A stretch of 63,951 nucleotides of DNA, the filler included, from Reclinomonas americana ATCC 50394 (Eukaryota), in the NCBI GenBank assembly GCA_048213135.1. It is 12 parts of 10 records of this genome, joined end to end, with 100 filler letters (N's around TTAATTAATTAA, not from the genome) between each part and the next. Parts side by side here need not be neighbours in the genome. Positions count along the whole stretch, not along the records: positions 16,314 to 39,389 come from AFZH01016648.1; 11 more parts are not named here. One strand, written 5' to 3'. The notes under the pieces are model-generated. The model saw nothing but the letters and a program-made list of their open reading frames with translations, did no database searches and was not told where the DNA came from. The position numbers and the translations under genes were made by a program. Of the stretch, positions 2,915-44,733 are shown piece by piece. Position 1 is the stretch's first letter, and each line of letters opens with the position of its first letter.

Positions 2915-3014
2915 CTGCGAACGACGAATCAATACATGCAAGGACGCGACGGACGTCGACGTACAAGAAAACCATGTTTTACATTCGTTGAAGCCTACGT
3001 ATTAAACAGCGCTA

Positions 3015-8100: not shown

Positions 8101-8369
8101 NNNNNNNNNNNNNNNNNNNNNNNNNNNNNNNNNNNNNNNNNNNNNNNNNNNNNNNNNNNNNNNNNNNNNNNNNNNNNNNNNNNNNNNNNNNNNNNNNNNN
8201 NNNNNNNNNNNNNNNNNNNNNNNNNNNNNNNNNNNNNNNNNNNNNNNNNNNNNNNNNNNNNNNNNNNNNNNNNNNNNNNNNNNNNNNNNNNNNNNNNNNN
8301 NNNNNNNNNNNNNNNNNNNNNNNNNNNNNNNNNAGACGTGGCGAGTGTTTGTTGTCGTGCACTTCGTCT

Positions 8370-12040: not shown

Positions 12041-12140
12041 NNNNNNNNNNNNNNNNNNNNNNNNNNNNNNNNNNNNNNNNNNNNTTAATTAATTAANNNN
12101 NNNNNNNNNNNNNNNNNNNNNNNNNNNNNNNNNNNNNNNN
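12041..12140. other. Artificial scaffold spacer N44-TTAATTAATTAA-N44; also at 13183, 16214, 39390, 41119, 47919, 52164, 53743, 56923, 59146, 62003
   Basis: Identical 100-bp element with stops in all six frames, always embedded in Ns; genes such as ALDH, the FN3 protein and TFIIH p62 continue across it. Confidence 0.97.
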
Positions 12141-14425: not shown

Positions 14426-15108
14426 TCATGAGGGCGCTGGCGCGTCGCTGTCGAGTCGCTTGCCGTTCAGCATGACAACAATCTCATCGTCCACACGCTG
14501 CTCCACTTCCTCCCGATGGCCCAGCGACAGTGTCCTCCGTTTTCTCCGCGTCGCCGGCGACACTCCCGGCACCAGCTGCTTCGCCACATTGTTCAACTGC
14601 ACTACCGTGTGACACACACAAAACATACGTGGCAGACGTACACTGTATACACACACCTCAAACGCCGTCATCCGCCCACTCTCCGGCTCCATGGTGACCA
14701 ACACCAGCGGCAGAGTCGATCGCTGCGCGTGCGATCTCGCATCGGCAGTGTACCCGGCCGCACTGACAAACACTCCCAACACCGCCTGCTGCTGCGTGGC
14801 CAGCACGCCCTCCATCTCGCGCAAGTGTTTGGCACCCAACTGTGCGCCTGTGTGACGACACTGCACGAGCACTGGCACGTGATCGTTTGCACACAGATGC
14901 CAGTGGCCGCGCAGATCCACACCACCGTCGTATGCACCTCCGCAACGTTCGACTTGGAAGCGAAGGCGATGAAGGACCTGTGCGTGTGCGTGAGAAAGAA
15001 ATGTAGAGTGAGGATGATTGCATTCCGACTTCATGCCTTTTCTGTGGTTTCCTCGAAGCGGGTGCCGCGGTGCACAAAGGAGAACAGGCGTCGATAGAGC
15101 AGTTGCAT
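14426..15108 (-). CDS. RRG7: RRG7/DUF2034-like mitochondrial PD-(D/E)xK restriction-endonuclease-fold protein
   Basis: MQLLYRRLFS presequence-like start; RGTRFEE; GGAYDGGVDLRGHW; VLVQCR; LREMEGV; GVFVSAAGYT. Confidence 0.8.
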
Positions 15109-15194
15109 CCTCCTTGTCTCTCTCAACACACGTCGGAAAAATGATCGACCGCCAATGGACGAACACCTGAGAAACTCGCTGTGTTCATTTAGAG

Positions 15195-21100: not shown

Positions 21101-23092
21101 AGTGGTTGCAGTCGCCACCACACCACGCTGCTGCGGCGAGCCGGCGTACAGAACGACGAAATTGACACCAACAGTGACAAATGCATTGATGGAAGTTACT
21201 GCATTTCCAGCACGGTCATACCAGACAGCGCTTCGGGGCGCCGTCACACCGAGGGAGGATATTGCCGTCACAGAAGCTCTTCCAACGGCGGCACCAGAAA
21301 TGGACGTTGCCACAAGATTAACAGTTCCGACACCGCCATCGCCAGGGAGAGAATGCGAAAAGGTCATCGTACCAGTGAGGTCACTGGGGCCCATCGACAC
21401 GGTGCCCACAGCACCAGCGACGCCATTGGCAGAGAACGTGTACGGTGCCACACCAAAGCCACCACCACCAATGGTTGTGGCAGCAAACAGGCTACCCAGG
21501 CAGTTGGTGATCGTGCTGCCAGTCACCGACCAGCAGGCTACCAGGGTCTGAGCCGGCAACACCGGGCTGGCATCGGCGGCAGTCAGAGTGATTTCGAGAT
21601 GCGAGGCAACGTCGAGAGCAGCAGTGCCATCACCATTGGCGTTCTGCGCAGTCACGCGGATGCGGTACTTGGTGATGTTGGTCGAAGACAGCTTCGAGAT
21701 TAGAATGTGACCACCAGACAAACGTCCGAAGGCGCTGTCGTAAGCCGGCGTGCCAGTGAACGAGGTGGAAGAAAAGGCGTTGAACAGAACAGTGCCGCCG
21801 TTGGCGGAGGCCGCAGCCTCCACCTTGAAGCTGGCGATGGCACCGCCAGTCAGCTGCGGGCTCGTCCACGAGATCAGACCGCCGTCAGAAGCAGCCGCCA
21901 CCAGGGTCGGGATTGTGACCTTGTCCGGAGACTGCTTGCCGTCCTGGGTGGTCACCGTGGCGGTCTGCGAGGAAGGAGAAGGAGAAGAGGGAGGGTGAAC
22001 AGCGTGCAAAACCGAAAGACGAAAAGAGAGACGCAACAATGCTCCACGGGCCAAAACCCCACTGGCCCACAGCACGCACGCGCACACCGTAGCGAGTGCT
22101 TGGTCGCAGAATTCCATGGGAGGCGATTGCGCCAGTGCCCGACACCACGCACGACTGCTGCGAGAACGGGCCAGAGGTGAACGGGTTAATGGCCGCGTTG
22201 GCGTTGTTGCCGTTGATGGTCTCGGAGAAGAAGGTCACCGGAGTCCAGGCGATCAGCGAGTTGTTGGAATGACTGTAGATCTGCACCTGGAAGAAAGGGC
22301 TTTGCAGCTGGTTGAAGTTCGGGTTTCCAGAGCCAGTGGCGCCAGTCTGGCCGAGCTTGATTGGCGGGTAGAACGACAGCACGAACGAGGTGGCCGACCT
22401 GTAATTGATGGACAGGTTGGTCGGCTGGCGCGGGGTGCCGCTGAGTGGCACAGTCACGACCTGCGATGAGGTGCGGACGCCCTCACCGTACGCGTTGACC
22501 GCGTAGGCCTGTGGGTGGGGGAAAGTGACGCGACGAGGGGGGAAGAGGAGGGAAGGAGGGAGGGAACGCAACAGCGATGGTGTACTGCACACCCTCCTGG
22601 ATGTTCTGGTCAAAGTAGCGCAGAATCATGCCGTAGCAGCCGTAACCACTATACCATGGACCTCCGTTGGCCGTAATGGCGTTGACCGACATGCACTGTT
22701 GAGGGAGGAGAGGGGAGGAGAGACGGTGGTGATCAGAGGAGAGAGGAGAGAGAGGAACACGGAGGAGAAGAAAACGCAACAGTGTACTTGGTGGTACCAC
22801 CAGTGCTGGCCACGTCGACACCAAACTCCAAGGGCAACGCGTTGCCCTGGTTGACGGGGTTGGTCCAGTTGACCCAGATGGCCGACTGAGAGCCAGTAGG
22901 GAAGGAGGTGTCGAGGTCTGTGGGAGAGAGAGAAGGGAGGGAGGGAGAGAGAGAGGGAGAAAGTGAGAGAGGGAGGAGGTGTGCACACAACAAAGCAAAT
23001 GCGACAGCGACAAAGATGAAGAGATACAGCGAGATAGAGAAGACTGGAGAGAGTTGGAAGCAAGAAGACAGCTGAGAAGAAAGAATACACAG

Positions 23093-23143
<51 letters not shown>

Positions 23144-23368
23144 CACCATCCTCGCCCACGGCCTTGATGATCTGGAACTGCTCTGGTGCCGCTGAGCTTC
23201 CAGGAGCATAGAGCTCGCTGGCGAGGGCGAGTGGAACTGAGGCAAGAGCTGCGTGCGTGAGAGAGTGGCATGTTATTCAATGTGAATGATGGATGACTCA
23301 CGCAGCAGGAGCACTAGTGCCACAATGACCGCAAGTGACACGAGGTTCTGAGTGGGTAGCGACGGCAT
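15195..23368 (-). CDS. Giant (>2000 aa) type-I surface protein with multiple fibronectin type III repeats, one TM helix and a short cytoplasmic tail
   Basis: Signal peptide MPSLPTQNLVSLAVIVALVLLL-PLAS; FN3 signatures (ISLQWTIP..YTYQVYA; LQPGTPYVVNVRAVNSYG; GLTDATNYFIDVRGINGIG; LRPSTRYGVRVRAVGQWG); TM WIVIGVSCAAGVALVALVVWLLV; three small tail exons ending NLASSLDG*. Confidence 0.88.
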
Positions 23369-23639
23369 TGCACAATGCTACACTCGTTCCCGGCACCTAC
23401 GCATGTACGTGGAGAGAGAACGAATCCAAGACGTCCTGCGAACACTCAAAACACGGCAAGAAAATTGTTCCGAACAATCCTTGACGCTGCCTCTGCCGAT
23501 CGAGCTGTCTTCTTCTTCTTCTTCTTCTCTGTCTACCTCTCTCTCTCTCTCTCTCAACAACTGCATGTTGACTTTGGAAACAGTTTCCAATCTTACACTC
23601 CTCCAAATTCTTCTTTTCCCCCACGACCACGACTCTGTC

Positions 23640-26600
23640 TCACTGAATAGCCAGCACAGCAGTCGCCAGCAGCTCGTCCACATTGGCACCGGCGCCACGC
23701 AGGAATCGCTGCCCCTTGTTGAAACTGCAACCAAACGCACACAAGTGAGATGTACAGCAGCAGGTGGTGGTGAAACACACAAGTGCACAAGAGTGACGAA
23801 CATCAGCTGCCACTCGCCACGACGCGCAGCGCCCACGGTCTTCAAGCCATCAATGAAATTAGTCCATCGAAGCTTGCACCTTCCACACAATCAACACTGA
23901 TGCACAAACCTGCAGCACGGCCATTGCAATAGCAGTCCACCACACCTTGTCGTCGTCCACAGACTCCGGACGCAGTGCATTCAGCTGCTCCACAGTCTTC
24001 GTCGTGTAGCCCGCAATCAGTCCGCTCTCCGACGGCGTCCAGAACCCAGCAAACTGCACAGGCAGAAGTAAGGAACACACCACGACAGCAGCTGGTGAGT
24101 GGGGAGATAGAGAGAGAATGTTGGTTGCGCAACGTTTTGCTTCAGCATCAGTGAATCCTGTGTGGAATCGAGTGAGCAACAAAGACTGATGACAACAGCA
24201 CCTGCTGCGGACGCAACGAGGTTCAAGACTGGAGCTGCCACAACGGAGCTCTTGCCGACTGGCTTTTCTTGCTGCCTGCATAGTTGTAATTTCAAAGTCA
24301 GTATGCCACACACGCATCAATGAGTAGAGCGCTCGACGCACTTTTCCTCTGCCTCGTACGACGCCAGAGAGGCGGCCAGTACAGCAGCCAGATCAGGGTC
24401 GTCTTCTTCGTCTCCAGCAGCCATTACCGCACCTTCAGCTGCCAGGCTCCTCTCCACGGCCAGACCACCGATGTCCAACGCGCGCAGGTCTACAGCAGCC
24501 GCTGGAGCTGGACTGTACGCGAACAGGCTGTCCAGCGCACTGCTTTCACGAGCGACGTGGCCCACGTCGGCGGCTTGCATGTATCCAGCTGCACCTGCAG
24601 GAGGTGGTGGTGGTAGTGGCATTCCTCCATACGCGTGCATCGGGAATGCCGCCTGCGGGGCTGGTGCTCCATACATCTGAGGCGGAGCATATGCTGCGGG
24701 TGCTGCCACTGGTCCGCCTCGCAAAACAGGCATCGGTCGATGCTGTTGCTGCTGCTGTGGCTGTTGAGGACGGCCGAAAACCGCACCAGAGGCTACTGCC
24801 AGGTCACTGAACGGGTCTGCTGCTGGCGACGCATCTGGGCATTGAAATAACAAGCAAATTGCACATGCATTCAGCAAAAATACACCAGATCGACGAGATT
24901 CAGCCGCTGCTCATACCTTCTTCTGCTTCGCCGAAATCGTCCGCATACGCGAGGTGGTTTGCGTGACTGCAGCACGGCGACTAGTGAATCACATGCAACA
25001 TCCAGTGACATCACATCAACAAGCTGTTACTCACTGCGGCATGTGACCGCCAAATGCCCTCGGCATCGCACCATGGCCACCAAGTTCCCTCGCCATTTCG
25101 GCAGGCGCGAAAAACGCGGCCATCGCTGGCCGCATCTGTGGACCACCACCACCACCGCCGAAGGCCGCAAAATTTGGCGCTAGCACACTCGACGTGGCAG
25201 TGGCTGCAATAGGTGCACTGCAATAACAGTCCTCAGTGGTGAGGATAGATCTGACATGGAAGCCAGAGTGACAAGCAATACTCAACGATTTGTAGCCGCT
25301 CTCGAGAGCAATGTTGATCTCACGCAACACCGGAGCCACTGCACACGCACCATCACAACCGTCAGACAACTCGCTGAACACTTTGAATTGCGCTTGCATG
25401 CGCATACACCCACCATCACTGGCGGCCGACGGAGCGTCGTCCACCACAATGAAATTCGTGTGCTTCGACGCCAGCTTGAAGCGCGTCGCCAACTCCACAA
25501 TGTCGCCAGTCGATCTGCGTGCACACACAGACAGACAAATAGACACGCCACTCAGAACAACAACAACGAAGGCGCATGTGCACAGTCCCCCGTTCTTCAC
25601 ATGCACGCACCCGTTGTGAGTCTCCAAGTGCGCGATCTTACTCTTGGCTGCGCACACAACACCACGTCAGCATTCAAGTCGCTGGCGATTCAACACACCA
25701 CAGTTCATGATCGGTACAGTACCAGCAAGAGTGTGCACTTGCGTGCCGCGCACAGCCGCACCAGCACGAACAGTTGCCGTCTCCTCCACTTCCTCTGCCA
25801 AAGATGCACAAACCAGTGAGTGTCGACTTGTGACACAGAGGAGATTTCGCACTCACCGGCACCCTGCTGCCACGTCAGCTTGACCTCGAACGAGCCGACA
25901 TCACGCGGTGCAAACATGTACACGCAGTGCAACTCGCCCTGGAACGTCGGCGGAATCACATCGTCGGCCACATGCACACGCGGGTTGTCGACCGTGATCT
26001 TGCAGTTGGTGAGTGCCGGCTGCATGGCGCCTGTGAGGACGCCAAACACAGACGGACGCATTCCACCCTCGTCAGCTTTCACTCACTTCGTGCGAGAAGC
26101 ACAATGCCACGCAACGAGTGAGTTGGGTGATGACCAGCGAGGCCATCTGCTGTTCCCCGATCTTGCTGAATGCAGCACTGCCGTTTCCCTTGCGCGCCAG
26201 TTCCAACACCAGCTCGGCATCCACCTGCAGCCCAGATGCACAGTGAGCATCTCTCACTCTTGCAGACAACCATCAGGAGACTCACATCGTTGCCGATGCC
26301 AATGGACCACACTCGAGTCGTTCCTGCATGCTGCACCACTAGGGCACTCATTGTTGTCAGCCAACGACGAACAGATGAAGATGACTGCCTGCTGTCACAC
26401 TGACCTTCGTTGACACAATCCTGGGTATTCTCCACCTCACCATCGGTCAGCACAAACAACTGGCGGCTGTAGCCGGCCACCACTGGCTGACGGAAGATTG
26501 CACCCAGCGGTGCCAGCAGATTCGTGCCACCGAGATCACCGTCAGCGCGTTCGACATACGCACGCGCCTCGGTCAGCGTGTCCTCGTCGACCTTGCGCGA

Positions 26601-28160
26601 CTGCGGCCACAGGCTGTGGAATACACCACCAAATCTGCGACCAAAGAAGAGCAGACGCTGCGTTTTGAGTTGCACGCAACAAGAAATCACCACATTTTTT
26701 CATGCAGACCGATAGATGTTGAACATGACGCCAGGTGCGAGACTCTGCAAGAACAGTTGCATGGCGCGCTTGGCTTCGCGGATTGGTCCACCACTCATTG
26801 ACCCACCTGCATCACAAACATACATGATCACAATATGAGCGACGACGATTGGACATGCCACTCCTTCACAACACGCCCACGTAACTGCAGTCCAACAGAA
26901 ACACAATCTCCGTGTTGATCTCCACATCCAGGTTGGCATCCAACGCCGGGGCAATCGTCACACATACCGCCAGTTCCTTGTCGGTGCCCACCAACGCCGG
27001 ATCCACCTCCACAGAGACAGCAGGCACTGATGCATTGTTCAATGTTGGCCAACAAGGGAGGAGAGAAAGACAGCAGCGCACCTGGCAGCTCCTCCAGTGT
27101 GAATGATACACACAAGTCGCTGGCAAACGACTGTCGCACGTCCTCCAGACGCAATGTGGCCTCGTTGTCGCGCACATCGGTGCTGTGCATTGCGTGATTC
27201 TCCGATGTCACATTGGTGATGACCGACGGCATTGTGGCCTTCACATCCACCGACGCGCAGAACCGACGCAGCACACCAAAGGCGGTCTCTATCTCCACTG
27301 CCTCCGGTGCAGACGAGCCGGCCTCACTGTCGACACCGAGTGAGAGATGCCTCACAGAGGAAAAGAGAGAGAGGGAGGGAGAATGAAACGCAACTCGCGC
27401 TCACGCAGCGGTGGCAGCAGCGACTTGGAGACGACAAAGACGAGGTTCTTGGCCAGTGCGTCGGCCTTCAACTCCGTCACGTATGTGATGCACACGGTGG
27501 CCTCGTGTGTCGGATCCAGCCGACCAATGTTGACCTGTGTGTGAACGACGAAATGCACGATGGTCGGCGATCGAGTCAGCAGACAACTTCGTCTCCTGGT
27601 GGTGGCGACGCAACAGTGTAGGTGAATTCGTCACGCTTCTCGACCATGAAGGGTCGATGTCCGGCCGCAATGGCATCGTCGTAGCGCTCCTGCGCCCGCT
27701 GCTTGGCCTCCACAGCGCCCTGCAGCGATCAGAATCACCGATTAGCTAAAAATATCACGGCGTGTGTGATCAACTGGCGACACGTAGCGCACTCAACTCG
27801 CAACACCCGCCCATCAACCTGCACCGCAAAGTCGCACACGGCAGTCTTGCGGTCACACGGGAACATGTATGTGATCTCCAGCGGCGTGTCAGTGCGATTG
27901 GCGTACACCTGGATGCATGTCACTCGCGCCGTCGCGCCCACAATCTCCGCTTGCACATGCACGCCTGTGCCACAGCGAGAACGAGAAGAGAGAGAGGTGG
28001 AGGAAGAGACACACGAGTGAGACAAGTGCTTTGAGTGTGAAAGGCGGAAAAATGACAGCCGCGTCGCACCTTCCACAGGTAGCACGCTCTTCCCCGCTGG
28101 CACTGTGGGGTCCTCGTAAAAGAGGCCCGCAATGGGCTGCACAAGTGTTGGTTCCTCCAT
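23640..28160 (-). CDS. VIT + von Willebrand A domain protein (VWA5A-like) with Pro/Ala-rich linker and a UIM
   Basis: VIT: VHVQAEIVG..YANRTDTPLEITYMFP..AQERYDDAIAAG; MIDAS EIVFLLDC-SGSMSG; LGGTNLLAPL; LFVLTDGEV; RVWSIGIG; LASKHTNFIVVD; C-terminal VWWTAIAMAVL..EWQLM-FNKGQRFL. Confidence 0.92.
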
Positions 28161-28258
28161 GTGTTGTCTTCTCTCTCTCAATGATGTTTGTTGTGATCAT
28201 CCACCCCTCCGCTCCACTCAACCAAGCCATACCATACCATCGCACGATGCGTCGCAGC

Positions 28259-31200
28259 AGTGGTGTCTTTTGTTGCGTATGTGTGTGTCGCCGCTGCATC
28301 TTGTCTGCGTGCGCTTTCTTCTTCCATCTCTTCTGTTCTCTGCACGCGTGTGTGCGTGTTTGGGGGGGTGGTGATGTGCATTTCCTCTCTTGTCGCCCCG
28401 GCACTCTCTGACACTGCTCTCCGCGCTTGCTGCAGTGGGCGGTGGTTGCTGCAGCTCCAAGCCGGCGGATGTGCGCGACCCAGCGGCGCCAGGACGAATG
28501 ACTCTCGGTCTTGTGTGATTGAGCACGCGCACGCACACTGCTGCATGCTCACTCTCTTGCAGGTGGGCTGGAGCCTCACGCCGACCCGGTGGTGCCGCCT
28601 GCGAATGTGGTGGTTCGTGCTGTTAACGTACCACCGGTGGTGGTCAATGTGCCCGAGGTTCCGCATGTGCCCGAGGTTCCTCGTGTGCCTGAGGTGCCTC
28701 GCGTGGCCGAAGTTGTGCAACAAGTGGTGGCGCAGCCGGTGGCGCAGGCGGCTGCGGCTGTGGAGACGCAAGTGGTGTCGGTGCCGACTGAGGTCGTGGC
28801 CAGAGTCGAGGATGTCGTTCCTGGTGTGTTCGGTTTCGATTTCCTATCGACTGTGACTGGTTTCGTTGTTGATCGTGGTGGCAGAGATCCCGCCGCTGGA
28901 GGAGGTTATGCCGTCGCCAAGCATGTCCCTGGCGGAGATTGAGTCAGCTGACATTGTGGTGGGTGTTTCTTGTGCTGTTTGCTGCTGTTGTCTGTGCTGT
29001 CCGCTGATGTCTGATGCGGATCGTGGCGTGCAGGAGGTGGCAACGCCTCCCCCGAACGAGGCACCGGCTAGGAACCTGGTCAACTACTATGCGGCGGAGG
29101 AGGAGGGCGAGGCTGCAGATGCTGGAAGCGTGTCCACTGATCATGCGTTGCCAAAAGTCGACTTGCCGCAGAGCGATCCGCGATACTTTGCGGCGCTGGC
29201 CGGCGAGGTGCGTTCTGTGATCGTCTGACACTGAATGGAGTGTGGTGCTGCCGCTGACACGTGCATATCTTTTTTTGTGTGCGATAGTCGCGAACACAGC
29301 GCTTGTCTTGCACGGGTACGTTTGTTGATGTGTCCACGAGGGGCTGTGGTGTAAATGCATTTCTGACAGACTTGGTGGGTGTGCATCGTGCAGCCGCCAG
29401 TGTCCGCCTCTTCCTTTTCGACTTTGTGGCGGAGGTTCAGCTGGAGCAAAAGTTTGTGCATGTGGGAGATGCGCCGGAGGTGATGGAATATTGCTTCCCC
29501 AAGTCGGACACCATGGCTCTCATGGAGTGGAGTGCCACGGTGAACGGCAGCACATTCAAGGTCTCGAGTCGCCGTGCACCACCTTGTGCCACTGTGTTCC
29601 CCCACTTTCTGTTGACTTGTGGGGTTTTGTTTTCAGTTGAATGCGCAGCGCAGCGCGGCCGCACAGAGTGAGATCCCGTCGTGGAAGGAGAGTGCATCTG
29701 GTGAGCGTGGTCAGACGATTATGTTGATGCCGTTGGGTCTCGTGTCGCCCGGCGATGAGGTTGGTCATTGTCGTAATGGACGCGGTGCATGATGAATCCA
29801 GTGGTTGATTGCGGTTGTGGTCTGTCATGTAGGTGTCGGTGTCACTCAAGTACGCGGTGCGTGCCGAGTACGACCGTTTCTCGCGCAGCATTGTTGTGGT
29901 GCTCCCGTTGTACATGGCACCCGAGGCGAGCAGGTGAGTTGTCGGATGGAAGAATGATCTCTTTGTTCTACGTCAGTTCGTTCACCGCGGACCTGCAACA
30001 GTGCATCCAAGGATCCTCTGGTGTCCGTCTTGTGCCGCATGTCGGACCCCATTGATGATATCCGATCACCGTCGCACTCGATTCGTCGACTGCTGCAGGG
30101 CACACAGGTCACGTGCTCTAGTCCATATCTTGAATCGGTGCGCGAAATGGCCCGCTGACAGTTGTACCCACAGGCCCGTGTGCAAGTGATGCCGACGTTC
30201 GGTGTCGAGTTCCTCGTGCTGGCTGTGTATCCCAAGCGCTACTCGTTCCCGATGTGCACTGTGGGTCGCTCACAATCATTTGCCGAGAAGACCGATGCCA
30301 ACCACGAGTACTGTGTCAATCTCACTCTGCGTTGCGTACTTTGCGTCGCGGCCAGGGTGCATTCGTGCCGTTTGATGCTGATTTGTCGCGTTCCTGGTTG
30401 TAGTGCCACCTCGCGAAATTTTGCCAGCCGTGCTGCCGAGGGATCGCATGGGCGAACTGAATTGTGACTTTGTGTTCATTCTGGATTGCTCACGCAGCAT
30501 GAAGGGTGCACGGTGCGTCAAGCGTGTGACATACCCCGCTCTCTGTGGTGTGTGTACAGTCACTGACATTATTGCATCGTGCAGCATGACGGAGAGCAAG
30601 CGCGCCTTGCTCCTCTTCTTGCAGTCGCTTACCGTGGGTGCTCACTTCAACGTTGTCAAGTTTGGTGACGAGCATCATCGCATGTGGCCTGTGTGCCGCT
30701 CGCTCAACGACGACACCATGGCGGAGGCTCGGTCCGTTTGCGCTTTTGCAGGCTGTCGTTTTTCTCTGCGAACAACTGACCATCCAGCGTGCGCGACAGT
30801 GCGTTCATCAACTCTGCTGACGCCGACATGTTTGGCACTCGCCTGTTCCCGGTGCTGGAGGAAATCTACAGTGAGGTCTGTAAGTGTCGCACCATGTTTG
30901 TCTTCACAGCTGCTACGGACACTGATTGATTTCTTTGGTGCAGCCGGAGACTGGACGCACTCGCCAGCTGGTGAGCTGCGAGTGGTTGCAGACTTGCGCC
31001 TGCCCCGCTCTCTGTTGACCTTATTCGTTTGTGCAGTTCTTGTTGACCGACGGCAAGGTGGCCGTTGACAAGCTGCGCCTGTTGGGTCAAGGTGAGGGCT
31101 GTAGTTGATAACTGTTTTCTTCACCCACGCATCCGTTGCCAACTCGGTCCGATCATGCGGTAGTTCGGAACGGTGCGAAGAGCACTCGTGTGTTCACCAT

Positions 31201-32840
31201 TGGCATCGGAGATGAAGTGGATCCGGACATGGTTGTCGATATTGTGCGTCGTCTCACACGTGCAGATGTTGTGCCAGGAGGTCGTGTGCTCACCAGTGAG
31301 CACTGTAGGCGCGCTTTGGTAACGGAGCGTACAACTTTGTGGAGATTGGCCAGCAGAACTTGTCAGATGTGGTCATTTCGCAGCTGGAAACCGCGCTGGT
31401 GCCGTCTCTCACGCGCATCACTGTCGAGTTCTCGTCTCCAAACGTCCGCCGCTTGTTCGAGCTGATCCCGCCGCTCTTTGCTGCCTCCACCACGCACGTC
31501 AGCTTCCTGCTGCCGCGCAACGAATCTCTGCGCGTCAAACTCTCGTTCACTGGCCTCGGTGAGTTTGCATATTTCGTCACCAACTGTTGCGCCATTGTGT
31601 AGTCCATCTCACCACGGAGTGTGTATCCTCTCAGACGGTGTGGAGCAGTCGGCCGAGACTGTAGTGTCGACAGACAAGGCGCACTCGACGTCTGCTGTGC
31701 ACGCACTCTCTGGTCAGTCGTGGTTGCGCACACTCGAGCTGTGGCACCCCGAGTTGCGTTTTGGGTGCTCTCATTTGTGTTTGTGTGTTGAAGATTGCCA
31801 GAAGTACTCACTCGTGCACCTGCAGTCGTGTGGAGGAGATTACCAGTTGGGCTGTGCCGTTTGCATTCCCAAGCACGCAGTCGCTTGTTGTCGTCGACGA
31901 GACGCATGCTGATCCCGAGAATGGTGAACGTTGTTGGTGTTTGTACCGATTTTGAGAATGTGGGCCTCACTCGCCAACAGGTCACCATTCCCCCGTGCGT
32001 CAGCACCCGGTGCTTGTCAAGGTGCCCGGATCGAGCTCGACGCAGTTGCGTTTTTTTCGAGTGAACCCAATCAATCTGTGTCCATTGTGTACTGACACGC
32101 TCTGCGACAGAGCGCTGCAGCGCACTCGATCGGCGGCGAGGGTGAGTTTGTGCGCTCGTGTGTGCTCTCTGAATTTTCTGTTGTGACTGATGAACTGTGC
32201 GTGCAGAACTCGGCAAGCATGGTCAAGGCGCCGTCGCTGGACCCTGCACGTGGCCAGCTCGACGCTCTCATGTTTGCGCAGACGGTAATTGATTGTGAAG
32301 TTTGTGTTATTGTAGTATTCGCACTTCTCACATTCATGTGTCTGTGGCACGCAGGCCGGTGGTGCGTGGATTGGCACGGAAGCGTTGTGCCAGATGCTCA
32401 GCGTGACGGAGGAGGAGGTGCGCTTCTGGTGCTGTTGCTCTCTGGTTCGCTGCCTCGTATCGCTCACTATGCAGTACGCAGATTCACGCTGTTCCCGCCG
32501 CCCGAGCTTTGCGGAGCATGGAGCTGTGGTACTCTGCTGTCGCTCTCGCCTCATTGGAGGTGTGTCGTGGTGTTACATCCCGGTGTGTGGAGCAACGCTA
32601 ACACGGGGATGTGTGCAGACGTTCTTCCCGGCCGAGTTGAATGAGTGGCGTTTGGTGGCCAGTAAGGGTGCCCGATTCCTGGCAACAGAGTTGGGTGTGC
32701 GTCCCATGGCCAAGATTCTGGAGGAGGCTCGTGGCTTTGTGGATGCCTCGTCGTCGCCACTGAAGGGCAGAGCGGTGAGTGCTGCCGCCGTGTCTGCTGC
32801 CGCTACGGCGTCAGCTGCTTCCGGTTCTGGCTCGCGATCG
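28259..32840 (+). CDS. Second VIT + vWA (VWA5A-like) moiety with GGGCCSSK N-terminus and Val/Pro-rich region; probably the N-terminal half of a fusion with LTA4H
   Basis: AEVQLEQKF..MEYCFP (VIT); DFVFILDCSRSMKG; LLLFLQSL..HFNVVKFG; LLTDGKV; RVFTIGIG; WYSAVALASLE-TFFPAELNEWRLVASKGARFL. Start position uncertain. Confidence 0.85.
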
Positions 32841-32902
32841 GTTGCGTACCTCCCACGGCTCCTCTTCTTTGCCATTGTGCGATGAACTCATTGTGGAGAC
32901 AG

Positions 32903-35900
32903 ATACAATCCGCCGTACCGGCTGTGGTTAGCGCCAACCCGGCTGCTGTTGGCCGCGCTGCCCTGCGACCTGTCGGATCGTCGACATCGCCGAGGAGTCT
33001 GGCCGCCAGTGCCACGTCATCTGCGGCACACACCCTGTCGTCTACGCAGGCATCTGCCGCTGCGACATTGACGCATGCCACGGGAGCGATGGCTTCCTCT
33101 GTGGCTCCAGCTGCGGCGGCTGCATCGTCGGCACCGGCGGCAGCCAGTGCCGCTGTGTCTCACGCGGCGGCGGCGCCCGCTCAGGCCGTGCATGCAGCGG
33201 CGGCATCAGCGCCAGCAGCGGCAGCCAGTGCCGCTGTGTCTCATGCTGCTGCGGCGCCCGCTCAGGCCGTGCATGCAGCGGCGACATCAGCGCCGGCAGC
33301 GGCAGCCAGTGCCGCTGTCTCTCACGCTGTTGCGGCACCCGCTCAGGTCGTTCACGCTGCTGCGTCGTCGGCACCAGCCGCAGCAGCCAGCGCAGCGGTT
33401 GAACACGCTGTTGCGGCACCGGCTCAGGCCGCGCATGCTGCCGCGTCGTCGGCACCAGCCGCAGCAGCCAGCGCAGCGGTTGAGCACGCTGTTGCGGCAC
33501 CGGCTCAGGCCGCGCATGCTGCTGCTTCATCGGCACCTGCTCACGCCGTACAGGCTGCGGTGGTGGCTCCGGTGGCCGCCGCTGTCAGCGATGTGCACGT
33601 AGCGGCCTCCAATGCCGTGGCGGCTGCACCCGCTGCGGCTGATGCGGCTGCGTCACATGTTGCTTCGGCTGCGGCTGCCGCGCCTGCTGCTGCAGCGGCG
33701 GCAGTGGATGTGGCTGCAGCGCATGCGACCTCGGCCGTCGAATCTGCCGCTGGCATTCGACCGGGTTGCCGCGGTCGCCCAGATTTCTGCACGCTCTCCA
33801 GCCATGAGTTCGCGCAGAAGCACCTGGACTTGGAGATTCGCGCTCACTTTGACAGCAAGCAGCTTGATTGCACGTGAGTTCTTGTGTTTTGCTCTACGTC
33901 GCCTGTTGGTGTCATGCTACCTACCTGACTCTGCACCAACAGTGCCACGTGGACGCTGGAAGTTGGCCACCGCTCCCTGCCTCTGATTGCATTCGACGCG
34001 ACGTCGTCTCTCGTCGTGAAATCTGTCGTGTTGTTGGGCGCTGACGGCTCCGCACAACCGCTGGTGTTCTCGCGCGGTCAGCAGCACGAGATCACTGCGC
34101 TCGGGTGCCCGCTGTTGGTGGAGCTGTCTTTCGAGGTGACTGGCGAGCAGCGCATTCGCATAGAGTACGAGGTGTCGTCTGGCGCCTCGGCGCTGCAGTG
34201 GCTGGATGTGGCGTTGCGTCTGCTTGCTTGATTGTCGAGACCATTCATGGCCCGCGTCGTTGTTGTTATATTCATTACTGTTGTTCGTGCAGACAAACTG
34301 CCGACAAGAAGGCGCCGTTCATGTTCAGTCAATGCCAGGTTTGTCGCTGCGTGCTTGGTTGCCGCTTCTGCGTGCCTGCTTACCTGTTCTGCACGCAGGC
34401 CATCCATGCTCGCTCCATTCTGCCGTGCCAGGACACGCCATCACAAAAGTTCACCTATCACGCCATTGTCGAGTTGCGCAAACCGTCCTGGTCATCGTGT
34501 ATGCTTGAGACTGACACGTGACTGACTCGCAGATTCCCCGACGGAATGACGGCGCTGATGAGTGCGAATCGCGTCGATGTGCCCGCTTCCCGATCGGCGC
34601 CAGCAAACCGCAAGCTGGCCGCGTTCCACCAGCCCGTCGCCATTCCTGTTTCGTTGGTCATTGTCGGTTGTCCTTGACTGTTGTTGTTGTTGTACTCACT
34701 TTGTTGGCAGTCATATTTGCTGGCCATTGCCATCGGCGACTTGGCTTCACGGTTGGTGTCTGCGTCAATGTGTTTGTGCTTTGTCGGACGGTGTGTTGAT
34801 GGTGTGTCCTCCACACAGAGTAATCGGTCCGCGCTCGTCGGTGTGGGCCGAGCCGTCCATTGTGCGTCTGCTGCCTGGCGAATGCATATTGTGACGGTGT
34901 CCTGACCAGTCCTCTGTGTAGGTGGAGTCGGCCGCGCACGAATTCGCAGAGACCGAGGACTTTATCCGCTACGGTGAATGCCAGTGCTTGTTGCTTTTTC
35001 TTGCCTCTTGCAGTTGCTGATGCATAGGTATGTGTATTGTATGATCTGCGAACAGCCGAGGAAGTGACTGGTGCGTCCTGAATGCTCGCGATTCTTCGTT
35101 TTCCGTGCTTGTCTCACCAGTCGGCATGCCTGCGCAGGTGTACCGTACTTGTGGGGTTCATACGACATTCTTGTTCTGCCGCCTTCGTTCCCGTTCGGTG
35201 CGTGTGGGGTGCATTGCAGATGCCAGTTCCTTGCCGCTGAATTCACTCATTCCTGCTGTTCTCTGCTCAGGTGGCATGGAGAACCCGGTGCGCTTGTTGT
35301 TCTTCGTTTGACATGCTTCACGCATGTGGTGCTCATGTCTCTCGCCTTGTTGCAGCAAATCACGTTTGCCACTCCGACACTGTTGGCTGGCGACCGCTCG
35401 TTGGCGTCGGTCATTGCACACGAAATTGCACACAGCTGGTCCGGCAACCTGGTCACCAATGTGGTACGTTTTGCGGCAAAGCCTGCGTGATGGTAAGAGT
35501 TGAGCGCTCATGCCCCCGTTTGCTGGCAGACACACGAGTCGTTCTGGCTGAACGAGGGCTTTACCGTGTTCCTGGAGCGCAAGATTCTTGGTGCGTAGCT
35601 GCTTGTGAACAAATCGTGGACAACTCCGCGCCTCACGTGCCGAACTGCGCGATGCAGGACGTGCTTGTGGCGAACAGATGCGTCAGTTTGACAGCATCCT
35701 CGGCCACATTCATCTGCAGGCTGAGGTGGACCACATTGGCCCGGATCACGACTTTACTTGCCTGTGCCCTCGGTACGTGTGAGAATTCTCGTAAGTGTGT
35801 GTGTGTGTGTGGAGAGAGGTAAAATGCTCACGGATATTGCTGCTTGCAGACTGGAGAACATTGACCCCGATGACGTGCGTGCCGCTGATGGTTCTCATCG

Positions 35901-37069
35901 CCACCGCTTTGCATTATTCTAACCGCACTACCTTTTGCAATGCAGTCATTCAGCTCCATTCCGTACGAGAAAGGTATTGCGATAAAATGGGCATGGCATT
36001 GCACATTGGTGGCGTCGCTAACCACACTGAAACGATGTAGGCTTCTACTTGCTGTATTACCTGGAGGAACTGGTCGGTGGACCGCAGGCCTTTGAGCCGT
36101 TCCTCACTCACTACTTTAACAAGGTTCGCATATCCGCCATGTGGTCAGCCGACTTTGATTGTGTGGCGCTGACAGCGACTCCACAATAGTACAAATACCG
36201 AACGCTGAGTGCGGAGGAGATGAAGGAGACGTTTATTGAGTTCTTCACCGGCAAGGTCAGTGCTGCAACACTGGAGTCGATCGACTGGGAGACGTGGTTC
36301 TACACTCCCGGTATGCCCAAGGTCACCAATGTGTACGACCGCACATTGGCCCAGTCGTCTCTGGATCTGGCACAAAAGTGCGTGTGTGTGCGCGCGCGTG
36401 TGTGTGTTTCGATTGTCTGCTGTCGTGACTGACCCACGCGGCCGCTGGTCAGGTGGCACGATGCCAAGGGCGAGGGCTGTTCGGCGGCTGACATTGCTGG
36501 CTGGCACTCACGTCAGACGGGTATGTTCATCACGCGTACACTGTTGTTGCTCGTTTCGGTCATTTTATCATTCACTCTGTTGTCCCCCCCGCAGTGTACT
36601 TCCTGCAGCAGCTGATCTTGTCGTCGTGTCCGATGGATCACGATGTCATTCGGCATCTGGACTCGTGCTACTCATTCTCGAGGACGAAGAACAGTGGTGC
36701 GTCCATGTGTGCTCTCGGGTGCATCGCTGTTGTCTCCCTCTGATCAGTCCGTCCTGCAGAAATCCGCCATCAGTGGCAGACACTGTGCTTGCACTCCAAG
36801 TTTGAGGAGGTCTTCCCTCAAGGTGCGTCGCTCAGTGTGGAGAAGTGTGTTACGTTCGTGTCTGTCAACTCACGCGAGCTGCAAACACAGTTGAGGCGTT
36901 TGTTCGCGAGCAGGGTCGCATGAAATTCATCCGACCACTCTATCGTGAACTGGCCAAGTGCAGTGACGCGGGCCGAGAGCTGGCCCGACGAGTGTTCCTC
37001 GAAATGCGAGGCTTTTATCATGGCATTGCTTCAAAGATGGTGGCCAAGGATCTCGGCATTGACTCGTAA
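32903..37069 (+). CDS. LTA4H: Leukotriene A4 hydrolase-like M1 zinc aminopeptidase preceded by a ~290-aa Ala-rich linker
   Basis: [97 protein letters not shown] 37067-37069. Confidence 0.95.
33125..33540 (+). repeat. Coding tandem repeat, ~81 bp (27 aa) x5: [12 protein letters not shown](S/E)HA(A/V)AAPAQA(V/A)HAAA
   Basis: Directly visible in ORF 32882..33877. Confidence 0.9.
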
Positions 37070-37121
37070 TACGCCGCGGCTCCCCTTGTCACTTCTGCGA
37101 CGCTGGAGTTACTCTTTCTCT

Positions 37122-40100
37122 TTACGGATCGAGCGCAATGTAAACGGTCTTGGTCTGCATGAGGAGTGAGAAGGCAGCGAGTGGATTTCGCCGAATCGTG
37201 AGGCTCGTGGCCAAACCTCGAGATACTGCGTGCAAATTGCAGGTGAGCACACAGAATCTGTGTAGAGTGCAGACGCACACAACACAGCAAACCTCGCGAA
37301 GACCCTCCTCGCCGTACACGCGCCCAGTGCCCGACCTGCAAGACACTCAGCCCCCACATCAACTGATTGACAACCACCACAATGACGCGCAACTGCTTGA
37401 ATCCTCCAAAGGGTGCGCCAGGCTCCACCACTGTGCACAAACAGTGAGTCACAGAAGGGCGCAGAAACACACGCAGTCATTAGCCACGAATTGGACGCAC
37501 GGCCGTAGCTGTGGTGGCATGCAAAAGAGAGGATGCTGCATGAGAAAAACGAGAGAAGTAACTGTCAATGTGCAAGGATGACCTCACCAGTTGACCCACT
37601 GCACACGGGAGGCAGCGACACAGTAGTGCATGATTAGATCAGCGAAGTGTGCGAGACTAGCATAGAGAATCGAGTGTCAACGAACCACGGTGCCAGCGCG
37701 CCTGCACATGGGATGCGACAGCATCAGATATGAGATATTAACCACACAAGGGGAACAGTGGGTGAACACGCAACACGGAGCGCATGATCGCCATGGCCTT
37801 GGAGACGTCCTTGACCAACACGGCAGCCGCCAGACCGTACGAGGTGTTGTTCGCCTGGCGTCGTGTGAGGGAAGAGAAAAAACGAGGGACGCGCAAGCAG
37901 CAATAACTCAACTTGCGTGATAGCCTCGTCCAGCGAGCTGAACGGCGACACCACCAGGACGGGCCCAAAGATCTCTGCGGCACTCCCCGAGGTGAGGAGC
38001 CAAGAGAACAACTACGCGCGTCGCACGGCTGGTGACTCACCCTCCTTGACGATGCGCATGTCGGGAGTGCAATCGGCTGCTCCAAAAAGGGATTCAGTCG
38101 CACACGAAAGAAGTGCGCAATACATCAACAACACGCCACCCACCAAAGATTGTCTGCGAAGGACCACAAGGTGTGAGCCATGCAGTCCGAGTGCGAGTAA
38201 GATTCACAGACAGCAAAGACGTACCGGCTCGACAAAGTAGCCACGACTGGAGGCGCGCTTGCCTCCGCACATCACGCGGGCACCCTCGCGCTTGCCAATG
38301 TCAATGTACGACAGCACGCGACGCATTTGGTCTGCCAGAAGAAAATGAGTCATCGCCGCAGCAAGCAAGCTGATTCACGATTGCTTAAACAGTCACAAAC
38401 CCTCGTTAACAAGCGGGCCCTGCTCCGTGTTCTTGTCGAGCGGGTTACCGACGACACGCTTCTTGGCGCGAGCAGCCGCCTTTTCCAGGAACTGCAACAG
38501 ACGGCAAGTGGGCCCCGAGTACTCTCAGCATCTCGACGATCAGAAATACCGCAGCACCTTCTCGTACACGCTGTCTTGCACGTACACGCGCGAACCGGCA
38601 CAGCTACATAAGTGGAGGAGGTGGTGGAGAAGTGAATGATGTGGAAAGACAGAGCGCTGCGTACATGGCCAGACTGATACTCACCAGACTTGACCACTGC
38701 ACCGAAGCGACACGAGGGTGAGGACGCGAGGTGAGTGCAGTCGCAAGCAACACAACATCAACGCACGTGTTGTAAAAGATGGCATTGTAGCTCTGTTCGA
38801 CAGCCCAGTCGAGATCGACATCGTCAAAGATGATGAGCGGCGACTGGGATGGAGAAGTTTCAAAAAAAAAAGTAAGTGAAATGTAGGGAGATCACAGAGA
38901 CGATATCGCCAACATGCCGACCTTGCCACCGAGCTATACGGGAACATCGTGAGCACGCAGGATTACAATGGGACGTGTGCGCCAATTCAAACGTCACCTC
39001 GGTGGTCACGCGCTTCAGGTTGGACTCGGCGGCAGCTGTCGAAAATAGTCAGCGACAGATTCGGCGGAAATGAGCTCGAGTCACTCACCCTTGTGAACCA
39101 GACGGCCCACTGTCGTGTATGCAGATTGAGATGAATGGTCAAAACGGGAAGACAGCATTTCGCACACGACAAACCTTCCGTCGACTGCGGAAGACACAGG
39201 CGAGAAGACAAACAACGAATGAGTCGCGAGGAGAGGAGAAGGGGGAAGAGAGGGGGAAGGAGAAGGGGGAAGGCGAAAGGGGAAGACGAAAGGGGAAGAC
39301 GAAAGAGGAAGACGATGGGGGAAGAGATGGGGGAAGAGATGGGGGAAGCGAAGGGGGAAGTAAGGGGGAAGTGAAGGGGGGAAGTGAAGNNNNNNNNNNN
39401 NNNNNNNNNNNNNNNNNNNNNNNNNNNNNNNNNTTAATTAATTAANNNNNNNNNNNNNNNNNNNNNNNNNNNNNNNNNNNNNNNNNNNNAGAAGGGGGAA
39501 GTTAGGGGGAGCGAGAATGATAGAAAGAGAAAGGCGATGAGCTCAGAGACAAAAGAGAAAGATTATCGAGATGAGTGAGGAAGAAAGGAGAGCGAGTGAG
39601 ACAACAGCTGCACAAGCATGGAGGGCTACGCAACTCCAGTGAATGAGACCTTGTCGACGTCCATGTGGCGCTGTATTGGGGTGAGATATCAGAGACTGTC
39701 GATGGTTGATTGAAGAAGAGAAACGCACAGTCAGCGCTTCGCCAGTCTCTGCCGCACCCGGCACAATGTTAACGACACCTGCGGCGACGTGAGCGACAGC
39801 AACTTCAGGGGGCGGTACAAGTGCACAAACCAGGCGGGATGCCGGCCTCCAGCACCAACGTGCCAATGTAGAGAGCCGACAGTGGGGTCTGCTCGGCGGG
39901 CTTGAGCACGACGGTGCAGCTGAAAAGAAGTCACAGTGAGCGCCACCACGTTGAAGTATCAGCCCGACAAGTGACGCCCGACATACCCAGCAGCCAGGGG
40001 AGGCGCGATGCGAGATATGGCCATGAGGAAGGGGAACTGTGTGGCGACAAAGTGATTGAGCAGCTGAATCGACTGCACGAATCATGCACACGCGTGCAAG

Positions 40101-43058: not shown

Positions 43059-44620
43059 CTCGCACTGATGAAGACAAGCAGCTGTCTCGTTTCTCCATTG
43101 TCTCTCTCTCTCCTACTTCCTTCGTGCATTCACCACTTGCAAGTCCATGTGATCGCTGTCCCTCGCTCACCTTACAGTGTCGACACAAGCAGGCGCACTT
43201 TGTGGTCAGTCTCCTCTCTCTGTTGTCTCTCTTCTTCGTGCACTCACCACTTGCAAACCCTTGTGATCGCTGTCCCTCGCTCACCTTACAGTGTTGAAAA
43301 CAAGGAGTCGCACTTGATTGATGTCTCCTCCCTCCTGTTGCCTCTCGTTCTCTCTCTCTCTCCCTTTTGTGCGTCGTCCGTCATGTATCTGCTGCTTGCA
43401 ACTTGCTAGTGTCGCCGTCTCATTGCGGTGTTGACTCCTTCCCCCTGTTGTCTCTCTCTCTCTCTCTCCCCTTTTGTACATCATCTGTCATGCATTCACC
43501 ATCTCTGTCCTTCGCTCGTTACAGTGTCGACACAAGCAGTCGCACTTTGTAGTCAGTCTCCACTCGCCTGTTGTCTCTCTTCTCTCTCTCCTGCTTTCCT
43601 TCATACACTCACCACTTGCAAGGCGCTGTGATTGTTGTCACTTGCTCTACTTACAGCAGCAAGTCGCACTTTGTAGGCAGTCTCCTCTCTCGCCTGTTGT
43701 CTCTCTTTCTCTCTTCTGCATCTTTCGTGCATTCACCACTTGCAAATCGCTGTGTTGTCTCTTCGTCTCTCGCTCTCTCCGTCTCCTTTGCACGGATGAC
43801 GCTCATCCCGTGTTTGCAGTGGATCCTTGATGACGACCTGCGGCACTTGTTCTCACGGGCGGCTGCCGGCGCTGTCTACGCAATGGTTGTGACGACAGGC
43901 GCGTGTGCACCTTACTCGCTGCCTGTCCTTTCTGTGTGCTGACTTTGCACACAACACGCAGTGTTGACGAATTTGGGGGTGGATGTCAAACCGCTGCTGG
44001 GCTCTCTCGGTGCGAACTCATCGCCCGAGTGGGTGGGTTTGTTGCCTTTTGTACTCACATCTTCTCGTTGCGCAGGCATTGCGAGTATCACGATTGGCTT
44101 TGCCCTGCGGTTCGTTTCCGCCCTCTGCTATGCTCTCTCTCGGTCCGTGTTGTCACTCACTATCCCGACGCAGTGACATTGGTGCATCGAATGCTTCTTC
44201 CAGCGCTGCTCTCTTCTCCCCATCTGGACTGACACTCTCTCACTGCAGCATCCAACTTTTTGAGTGGCGTTCTTCTCGTGCACAGTCGGCCGTTCACCCG
44301 CGGTCAGCACATTCTCGTCGGCAAGCAAGTGGACGGTGTGGAGGGCCTGGTGCTTCGCGTGGACCTGCGGTACACGTATCTGCTGACGTCGACAGCCGAT
44401 CGCCGAACCATTGCCGTGCCCAACTCGGTGAGACAGCACGACGGAAGCAGCGCCGTCTCTCTCTCTCTCTCCCCACTGCTCATCCGCGTCACTCCCGCAG
44501 CTCGTCATCAATTCGCCGATATTTGTGCGTGGTGTGGTCCCCGAGAGTTACAGCCCCGCTGGAATCCACGACAAGGTACCCGGCAGCACCTCCAATGTCG
44601 GCAGCAGCAAGACGACATGA
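42631..44620 (+). CDS. Small MscS-family mechanosensitive channel with a predicted mitochondrial presequence
   Basis: MFSLVRRAALSSFSCRCRCLFSS; LTNLGVDVKPLLGSLGIASITIGFALRDIASNFLSGVLLVHSRPFTRGQHI..EGLVLRVDLRYT..IAVPNS. Confidence 0.9.
42900..43760. repeat. Degenerate intronic minisatellite (~110-120 bp units interleaved with CT tracts) in MscS intron 1
   Basis: Recurrent CA(T/C)TCACCACTTGCAA..CGCTCACCTTACAGTGTCGACACAAGCA..GCACTTTGT..CAGTCTCC near 43125, 43240, 43492, 43606, 43729. Confidence 0.8.
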
Positions 44621-44733
44621 CCTCGCGATTGAGTGAACCACCACCACCTCAAAAACAAAACCCTCCACTATATTGGCAATCTCCATAACATTGTCGCCAT
44701 CACCGCACCACCACTCTACACCCCACGTGCGCA

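Follow-up and report, generated by a model that had tools for sequence, protein, structure and literature searches.

A candidate in-frame fusion of a VIT-vWA protein to an LTA4H-type aminopeptidase in Reclinomonas americana

Two protein families bear on the locus described here, a plus-strand region at positions 28498 to 37069 of a 63,951-nt stretch of DNA (the window) from Reclinomonas americana ATCC 50394 (assembly GCA_048213135.1). The first consists of VWA5A/BCSC-1, Dictyostelium Vwa1 and other members of the intracellular VIT-vWFA-CTD clade, whose conserved C-terminal domain (CTD) stands at the very C-terminus of the protein, as stated in PMC10539598. The same source places PARP4, an intracellular protein that combines a VIT-vWA module with a catalytic domain, in clade D of the VIT-vWFA family. 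The second family comprises the M1 aminopeptidases of the leukotriene A4 hydrolase (LTA4H) and yeast LAP2 type, and the members that we compared are stand-alone proteins.

At this locus a VIT-vWA-CTD gene of the VWA5A/BCSC-1 type is followed on the same strand by a complete LTA4H-type peptidase. Judging from signals in the DNA, we consider it probable that the two form a single transcription unit with one fused open reading frame, the product of which would be about 1,804 aa long. Its 897 + 292 + 615 codons are stop-free once the introns, including a proposed 62-nt intron at 32841-32902, are removed. The fusion is favoured because this segment is intron-like, because codon periodicity is found on both sides of it, because the Ala-rich spacer that follows is under purifying selection, and because there is no room for either a terminator or a promoter. 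The case rests on one intron between long exons, each with independent evidence of translation. An in-frame fusion had been claimed by a first-pass annotation of the same DNA; VIT, vWA and CTD and then a complete M1 peptidase do follow one another in that order on the plus strand, as judged by Pfam and by alignments, and the fusion is the best-supported reading on several sequence signals, while a separate LTA4H start at ATG 32882 keeps some probability. Two of its figures had to be revised: position 28436, from which the gene was said to run, is not a start codon (our model starts at ATG 28498), and the fused length of about 1900 aa becomes about 1,804 aa. The features of the locus are as follows.

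28498..32840, plus strand: coding region of the VIT-vWA-CTD (VWA5A/BCSC-1-type) protein, from an ab initio model and blastp
28959..29033, plus strand: probable in-frame 75-nt intron (GTGGGT..CTGAT..CAG), picked as an intron by the ab initio model
29394..29759, plus strand: VIT domain exons (Pfam VIT, E 3.9e-4 on the open reading frame 29288-29668, below gathering score; blastp to VWA5A-like proteins)
30404..31558, plus strand: vWA domain (Pfam VWA_3, E 5.4e-5, below gathering score; about 31% identity to P0017 over 206 aa)
32355..32774, plus strand: conserved CTD of the VWA5A clade (tblastn and blastp)
32775..32840, plus strand: 22-codon Ala/Ser tail past the usual family end (VSAAAVSAAATASAASGSGSRS), from codon periodicity
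32841..32902, plus strand: proposed 62-nt intron (GTTGCG donor, CTCAT at 32887-32891, CAG acceptor, phase 0 on both sides)
32903..33778, plus strand: spacer of 292 codons, in frame with LTA4H and free of stops
33779..37069, plus strand: complete LTA4H-type M1 aminopeptidase of 615 aa, closed by TAA and encoded in 22 exons that are separated by 21 introns of 60-82 nt

Like the VWA5A/BCSC-1 and Vwa1 proteins, the upstream product has the order VIT, vWA, CTD, with the residues of the metal ion-dependent adhesion site (MIDAS) intact. Unlike them, it begins in the model with about 165 additional residues rich in V and P, and its CTD is not C-terminal, which we regard as a point of difference and not as failed homology. 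The downstream product shares with the LTA4H/LAP2-type enzymes the three Pfam domains, the GGMEN, HEIAH-x18-E, PYEK and GRMKF motifs, and the DPD region; in contrast to the stand-alone members, it has no Met at the family N-terminus and is preceded by the 292 spacer codons and, through the 62-nt intron, by the VIT-vWA protein. PARP4, likened here by its described architecture, is a precedent for a VIT-vWA docking module on an enzyme; there, however, the enzyme is a PARP located N-terminal to VIT-vWA and without a long Ala-rich spacer, whereas the enzyme of the locus is a metallopeptidase C-terminal to VIT-vWA. With the conjoined, or Rosetta stone, gene fusions that are generally known, the locus has in common that same-strand neighbours are involved, that the upstream stop is lost in an intron, and that the ancestral ends are recognizable. 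It differs from them in that what used to be intergenic DNA seems to have turned into coding spacer throughout, with purifying selection acting on it, and this points to a fusion that is established and not to a chimeric transcript made now and then.

The DNA of the window is eukaryotic and intron-rich, with about 56% G+C. It is stitched together from contigs by N44-TTAATTAATTAA-N44 linkers and, because none of these lies within 16314-39389, the whole finding falls inside one contig. We searched Pfam with 71 stop-to-stop open reading frames from the plus strand of 28001-37398. Matches were obtained for 7 of the 71, in the order VIT (29288-29668), VWA_3 (30382-31065), Peptidase_M1_N (34045-34518), Peptidase_M1 (35068-35487), and Leuk-A4-hydro_C (36492-36740 and 36806-37066); several scores were under the cut-off because every query was a single exon. 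A weak SsfX3_N match between the vWA and peptidase domains was treated as noise. Exons of the LTA4H part were defined with a custom protein-to-genome spliced aligner, guided by four stand-alone homologues of 556-635 aa (P0012-P0015), and those of the vWA gene with an ab initio model that scored splice sites on matrices from local introns, took account of a branch motif and of a prior on intron length, and rated codons by log-odds. The splice weight matrices were built from 26 introns, and motifs were compared with a set of 28 local introns considered confirmed.

The spacer is protein-coding in the LTA4H frame and is under purifying selection. The first-pass description of about 290 Ala-rich residues without a stop, and without a Met near the domain, was accurate: the 292 codons encode 49% Ala, 13% Ser, 10% Val, 7% Pro, and 5.5% His, with 1% each of Glu and Asp, and the single Met is codon 63, at position 33089. 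A codon-usage model trained on globular exons gave no frame separation in this Ala-rich sequence, and position-specific periodicity and a repeat substitution test were used instead. Five tandem repeats of 81 nt (27 aa) occupy 33113-33517, and 21 of their 30 variable columns fall at third codon positions of the LTA4H frame (chi-square p 1e-4). Counted pairwise between repeats, codon differences in this frame are 96 synonymous versus 42 non-synonymous, compared with 12:131 and 13:132 in the other two plus-strand frames, and the synonymous fraction was attained by 0 of 5000 column permutations. The counts are 91:54 in one antisense frame, which has its third positions in common with the LTA4H frame and in which GCN codons, reverse-complemented, are again read as Ala; this frame, however, contains 9 stop codons. 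It is this substitution pattern that identifies the spacer as coding in the LTA4H frame. Upstream of Met 33089, C occupies codon position 2 in 22 of the 31 codons of 32996-33088 (p 6e-6), and the His-punctuated Ala/Ser pattern of the repeats extends there as well; the periodicity is weaker in 32903-32995 (16 of 31, p 0.07).

On the other side of the junction, the usual end of the vWA family can be set at about 32774, since the C-termini of the homologues align there. Model residues 761-870 align by blastp to residues 703-811 of the 816 of P0018, and the CTD pieces AGGAWIG.., LWYSAVALASLE, and EWRLVASKGARFL..EEARGFV align at the far ends of P0018, P0017, and P0016. For the last of these pieces, tblastn gives residues 772-811 of 816 in P0018, 848-864 of 895 in P0017, and 1306-1321 of 1362 in P0016. 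Beyond this point the frame continues for 22 codons to the proposed donor or for 36 codons to a TGA. Of the 22 codons of this tail, read in the vWA frame, 16 have C at position 2, compared with 1 and 5 that have it at positions 1 and 3, respectively (p 4e-6).

Between the tail and the spacer lies the 62-nt segment, the sequence of which (GTTGCG..CTCAT..CAG, phase 0 on both sides) is as the first-pass annotation gave it. That no stop follows the VWA5A end, as had also been stated, holds if 32841-32902 is spliced out; otherwise the vWA frame passes through VAYLPRLLFFAIVR to TGA 32883-32885, which sits inside the segment. Excision would bring the vWA and LTA4H frames together in phase, as would splicing from a second in-frame donor at 32775, which we count in favour of the fusion. 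No codon periodicity is detected within 32841-32902 (p 0.46), and the periodic signal ends at the proposed donor and restarts at the proposed acceptor, offset by exactly 62 nt. The length lies within the 60-82 nt of the 21 LTA4H introns. GTTGCG is the donor hexamer of 2 of the 28 confirmed local introns and CAG the acceptor of 23, while 22 of them have a CT[CGA]A[CT] motif at a distance of 7-35 nt from the 3' end, and in the 62-nt segment this motif is 12 nt from the end. The acceptor itself is middling; its score of 4.52 ranks 10th among 26 and places it in the top 13% when set against 389 background AG sites. In order to estimate how often a feature-matched and length-matched pseudo-intron would span a given codon, first-order Markov simulations of the local composition were run; the chance was 1.6% when donors were confined to the hexamers observed and 9.6% when any GT was accepted. 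For the actual LTA4H coding sequence after splicing, the share of positions covered by pseudo-introns of this kind is, per length class, 0-3% under the stricter donor rule and 3-12% under the looser one.

From the vWA family end at about 32774 to the beginning of LTA4H homology at 33779, everything except the 62-nt segment is open frame, so that no intergenic space is left. No A/T-rich stretch occurs for about 1 kb past the TGA, and the next 400 nt contain 14% A versus 26% after the stops of LTA4H and of a nearby paralogue of the vWA gene. Translation from 32903 onwards requires either the splice, and hence the fusion, or the ATG at 32882-32884, which belongs to the downstream frame and overlaps the TGA (ATGA).

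Several observations weigh against the fusion. The GTTGCG donor scores 0.77 (rank 4 of 26 in a leave-one-out comparison), and 48% of 763 background GT sites score as high. This hexamer occurs 11 times on the plus strand of the locus; three copies are modelled donors and one is the candidate, and three others lie inside the spacer repeats, where a role as donor can plainly be discounted. The in-frame ATG 32882 could give LTA4H a start of its own, with an Arg/Ala/Ser-rich, acid-free, presequence-like N-terminus. The ab initio path score through the junction is circular, because the spacer was in the codon training set, and was not used. Applied to the minus-strand paralogue, the naive ab initio gene finder likewise extends it into its neighbour via a chain of weak introns, so joining by ab initio prediction as such was given no weight. 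Finally, the homologues retrieved do not share the architecture: it was present in 0 of 8 LTA4H-type matches and 0 of 5 VIT-vWA matches, none of them a close relative (best identity 65% over one exon) and all from databases that lack the organism's own proteins, and full-length LTA4H relatives measure 556-635 aa, with PDB chains of 605-633 aa.

Other searches brought no fused relative to light. A protein search with the junction exon (32903-33874) for longer proteins found nothing among 8000 candidates, where relatives were probably crowded out by low-complexity proteins. An exhaustive HMMER search with LTA4H exon 2 gave 7 matches, namely an LTA4H fragment (P0007), two repeat proteins unrelated to LTA4H, and four multi-stretch matches. 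Metagenome scans with the last vWA exon and with LTA4H exon 2 returned pattern matches and no relative. In a full-text literature search covering main texts, none of the papers among the matches listed, 15 of 44 in one case, paired LTA4H or an M1 aminopeptidase with VWA5A or VIT.

Both halves of the proposed product are well formed. The LTA4H half is predicted, from its motifs, to be catalytically intact. Of its 21 introns, 16 were agreed on by all 4 guide proteins, and the spliced product is 43-49% identical to the stand-alone homologues of 556-635 aa over nearly the full length; residues 9-613, for example, align to 10-601 of the 602 of P0013 at 47% identity. Single exons gave Pfam E-values of 4.5e-5 for Peptidase_M1_N, 3.7e-10 for Peptidase_M1, and 1.2e-18 for Leuk-A4-hydro_C, in the order of the LTA4H subfamily. 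The claim that GGMEN, HEIAH-x18-E, and PYEK are intact was borne out after splicing, and GRMKF is present too. The zinc site HEIAH-x18-E is at 35419-35556 (model aa 298-321), the intron-split GGMEN at 35197-35284 (aa 271-275), PYEK at 35961-35972 (aa 385), GRMKF at 36914-36928 (aa 565), and the DPD region at aa 376. In this family the Tyr of PYEK is catalytic, the Arg and Lys of GRMKF bind carboxylate, and the Asp of the DPD region is required for epoxide hydrolase activity. The position that we take to correspond to human Tyr378 is Phe here. The exon with the zinc site matches PDB LTA4H chains at residues 272-305 (E 2e-13 to 2e-14), and all 22 PDB sequences that it matched are 605-633 aa long. 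Given that homologue residues 5-14 align at 33791-33806, the start expected of a normal LTA4H falls at about 33779, and no Met is present there.

The vWA gene model starts at ATG 28498 and comprises 25 exons and 24 introns of 55-91 nt, encoding 897 aa up to the proposed donor. Six introns of the vWA core (30513-31308) were also recovered by protein-guided spliced alignment, which is reliable for those six only; the rest of the model is ab initio, and the N-terminal V/P-rich region of about 165 aa and residues 605-760 or so come from ab initio modelling alone. The spliced model matches five VIT-vWA proteins in blastp (E 1e-24 to 4e-31), covering residues 43-515 and 703-811 of the VWA5A-like P0018 and residues 26-148, 310-514, and 779-864 of P0017. 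A MIDAS motif consists of DxSxS followed by a T and a D, and this pattern is intact in DCSRS (30484-30498; aa 422), DMFGT (aa 489), and LTDG (31043-31054; aa 517). The N-terminus of the model, MTLGGLEPHADP.., does not have the look of a signal peptide when judged by eye. The V/P-rich N-terminal region, at 28563-28823 on the plus strand, includes an 18-nt repeat (PEVPHV/PEVPRV; tandem repeat 28648-28714). This region has no counterpart in the VWA5A-like proteins compared and may be coding or else 5' untranslated region.

A membrane-tethered enzyme had been proposed in the first-pass annotation, and this is unsupported. The sole hydrophobic stretch, VGVSCAVCCCCLCCPLM, is encoded by 28959-29033 and coincides with the candidate for a well-formed in-frame 75-nt intron; read through, this segment would yield a Cys-rich hydrophobic 25-mer mimicking a transmembrane or palmitoylated segment. 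Its codon log-odds of -0.55 per codon is in line with confirmed introns (-0.43 +/- 0.35) and unlike the LTA4H coding sequence (+0.50), and its composition (39% T, 37% G, 5% A) is intron-like as well. The stretch is, on these sequence properties, most likely an intron. VWA5A-type proteins are, moreover, described as intracellular in PMC10539598. Such cases form an annotation trap, in that short in-frame introns can mimic transmembrane segments in genomes with 60-80-nt introns.

The most serious alternative, although we judge it rather unlikely, is that two abutting genes are present. The vWA protein would then end at TGA 32883-32885 with the unspliced tail ..GSGSRSVAYLPRLLFFAIVR, and LTA4H would be translated from ATG 32882-32884 on a transcript of its own that starts inside the last vWA exon. 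The result would be a 914-aa peptidase, the first 45 residues or so forming an organelle-targeting presequence, followed by the Ala-rich extension. ATG 32882 is indeed the only in-frame Met between the upstream stop at 32663-32665 and 33089, but base composition leads us to expect roughly one chance ATG among the 79 codons that lie upstream in this frame. The N-terminus beginning there has 4 Arg and no acidic residue, and it includes RSL/A, which we take to be reminiscent of presequence cleavage sites; the scarcity of acidic residues, however, holds for the whole spacer and not for the first 45 residues alone. Two genes would also agree with the weak donor score, with the stand-alone nature of all homologues found, and with the codon score of the read-through tail (-0.08 per codon), which lies between the intron mean of -0.43 and the coding value of +0.50. 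In return, this reading has to place a promoter in the vWA coding exon and a poly(A) site in a coding spacer that, over about 1 kb, is 10-14% A, whereas in a same-strand pair nearby (the paralogue, which stops at 23640, and the gene after it) the two are kept apart by A-rich (26% A), microsatellite-bearing DNA. The intron-like features of the 62-nt segment, with their chance of 1.6-9.6%, and the matching Ala/Ser tails on both of its sides would be left as coincidence.

A variant nested within the fusion, in which one read-through transcript has two outputs, is improbable to a somewhat greater degree. Retention of the intron would give a stand-alone vWA protein ending at 32883, and splicing from 32841 or 32775 would give the fusion. 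The second of these donors is a consensus GTGAGT with a score of 7.24 (rank 20 of 26), in frame with the same acceptor, but it would make a 128-nt intron, beyond the local length range. Two in-frame donors sharing one acceptor and a stop inside the intron would suit regulated splicing of this kind, as would the weakness of donor 32841, weak donors being usual for regulated or retained introns. An mRNA that retained the intron would, on the other hand, have 21 further introns downstream of its stop, which would probably expose it to nonsense-mediated decay.

That LTA4H is separate and starts at Met 33089 (MASSVAP..), with 32886-33088 as intergenic DNA or 5' untranslated region, is very unlikely. 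This Met is the first past the TGA that does not overlap it, and the first-pass annotation had named this start as the finding that would speak against a fusion. The strong periodicity of 32996-33088 in the same frame and the continuation of the repeat pattern upstream of 33089 speak against such a start, which would furthermore leave just 203 nt for a terminator, a promoter, and a 5' untranslated region. A short upstream ATG exon spliced just before PDFCTLS, which would give a normal 620-aa LTA4H, was considered separately and rejected, as it would leave the selected open frame of the spacer without a purpose. An artefact, whether a misassembly or sequencing error creating the apparent continuity or a pseudogene in one half, might be suspected from the linkers with which the scaffold is stitched, but it is hardly credible given that none lies within 16314-39389, that 46 introns keep the frame, that all catalytic and MIDAS motifs are present, and that the spacer is under purifying selection.

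Returning to the fusion, we propose that splicing of the phase-0 intron 32841-32902 would remove the stop of the vWA gene and join VIT-vWA-CTD, via about 314 residues of Ala/Ser/Pro/His-rich spacer, to an intact LTA4H-type zinc aminopeptidase, the product being presumably a cytosolic protein of about 1,804 aa. vWA modules are generally held to mediate protein-protein contacts. With its intact MIDAS, the vWA domain could serve for docking and so keep the peptidase, carried on a long and for the most part disordered arm of Pro-interrupted poly-Ala, close to a partner or substrate. The fusion may have originated by read-through of two adjacent genes, after which the DNA between them would have been converted to coding repeats.

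That the fusion is real, established, and functional all at once, with a VWA5A/BCSC-1-type scaffold that has an intact MIDAS carrying an LTA4H-type aminopeptidase on a His-punctuated poly-Ala spacer of about 310 residues, is a proposal that we make only tentatively. If real, it is a new domain architecture of two known families. The combination occurs in none of the 13 homologues retrieved; lineage-specific fusions as such are not rare. The function of VWA5A/BCSC-1-type proteins is poorly understood, and a natural fusion to a defined enzyme would provide a concrete, testable hypothesis on their partners. It would amount to Rosetta-stone evidence that intracellular VIT-vWA proteins cooperate with N-terminal peptide trimming. 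In Dictyostelium, one intracellular VIT-vWA protein has been linked to an SCF ubiquitin ligase (PMC10539598). If the fusion is true, the peptidase might act on clients that the vWA domain has bound, either uncovering their N-terminal degradation signals or taking these off. The locus would also be a clean example of former intergenic DNA that has become a selected, repetitive protein spacer, and it illustrates how stops inside 60-80-nt introns determine whether one gene or two are called in genome annotation.

Some minor observations concern splice sites and gene ends. GTTGCGT is found at or near modelled 5' splice sites on the plus strand at 30331, 31753, 32045, 32841, and 34213, and it apparently forms a lesser class of donors, the dominant one being GTGCGT (10 of 28). 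One of the modelled introns, 30313-30403 (score -10.3), may truly begin at 30331. The pentamer TGTAA is absent from the plus strand between 30879 and 37139 and is also absent after at least two other gene ends; its occurrence in 28498-37069 (2 observed versus 2.7 expected) is not significantly depleted. It lies 70 nt after the LTA4H stop (37139, plus strand) and about 43 nt after the stop of the paralogue (23593-23597, minus strand), and it may be the poly(A) signal of the organism.

The paralogue is a VIT-vWA-CTD gene at 23640-28160 on the minus strand, divergent from the fusion locus, the start codons at 28160 and 28498 being about 340 nt apart. It has larger exons and a normal end, 30 codons past the EWQL motif, at TGA 23642-23640. 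Upstream of its CTD, the stretch ..DEEDDPDLAAVLAASLASYE.. resembles a ubiquitin-interacting motif. Beyond it, on the same strand, 15643-23300 is occupied by one or more very large Thr/Ser-rich genes, with fibronectin type III matches in the open reading frames 19685-22234 and 21888-22625 and a likely C-terminal transmembrane segment, ..VWKWIVIGVSCAAGVALVALVVWLLVRWRRH.., near the 3' end; the product looks like a surface adhesin.

Elsewhere in the window, eleven N44-TTAATTAATTAA-N44 blocks (e.g. 12041-12140, 16214-16313, and 39390-39489) are contig linkers with stops in six frames and are not biological; several of them break up open reading frames or microsatellites, and there is one gap of 913 N at 7421-8333. 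Pfam matches to neighbouring genes were obtained for two nucleoside-transporter fragments, seemingly of two tandem genes, at 1102-3710 (minus strand), for a Mrr_cat/RRG7-type protein with a restriction-endonuclease fold at 14429-15184 (minus strand), and for a mechanosensitive channel domain at 44233-44685 (plus strand).

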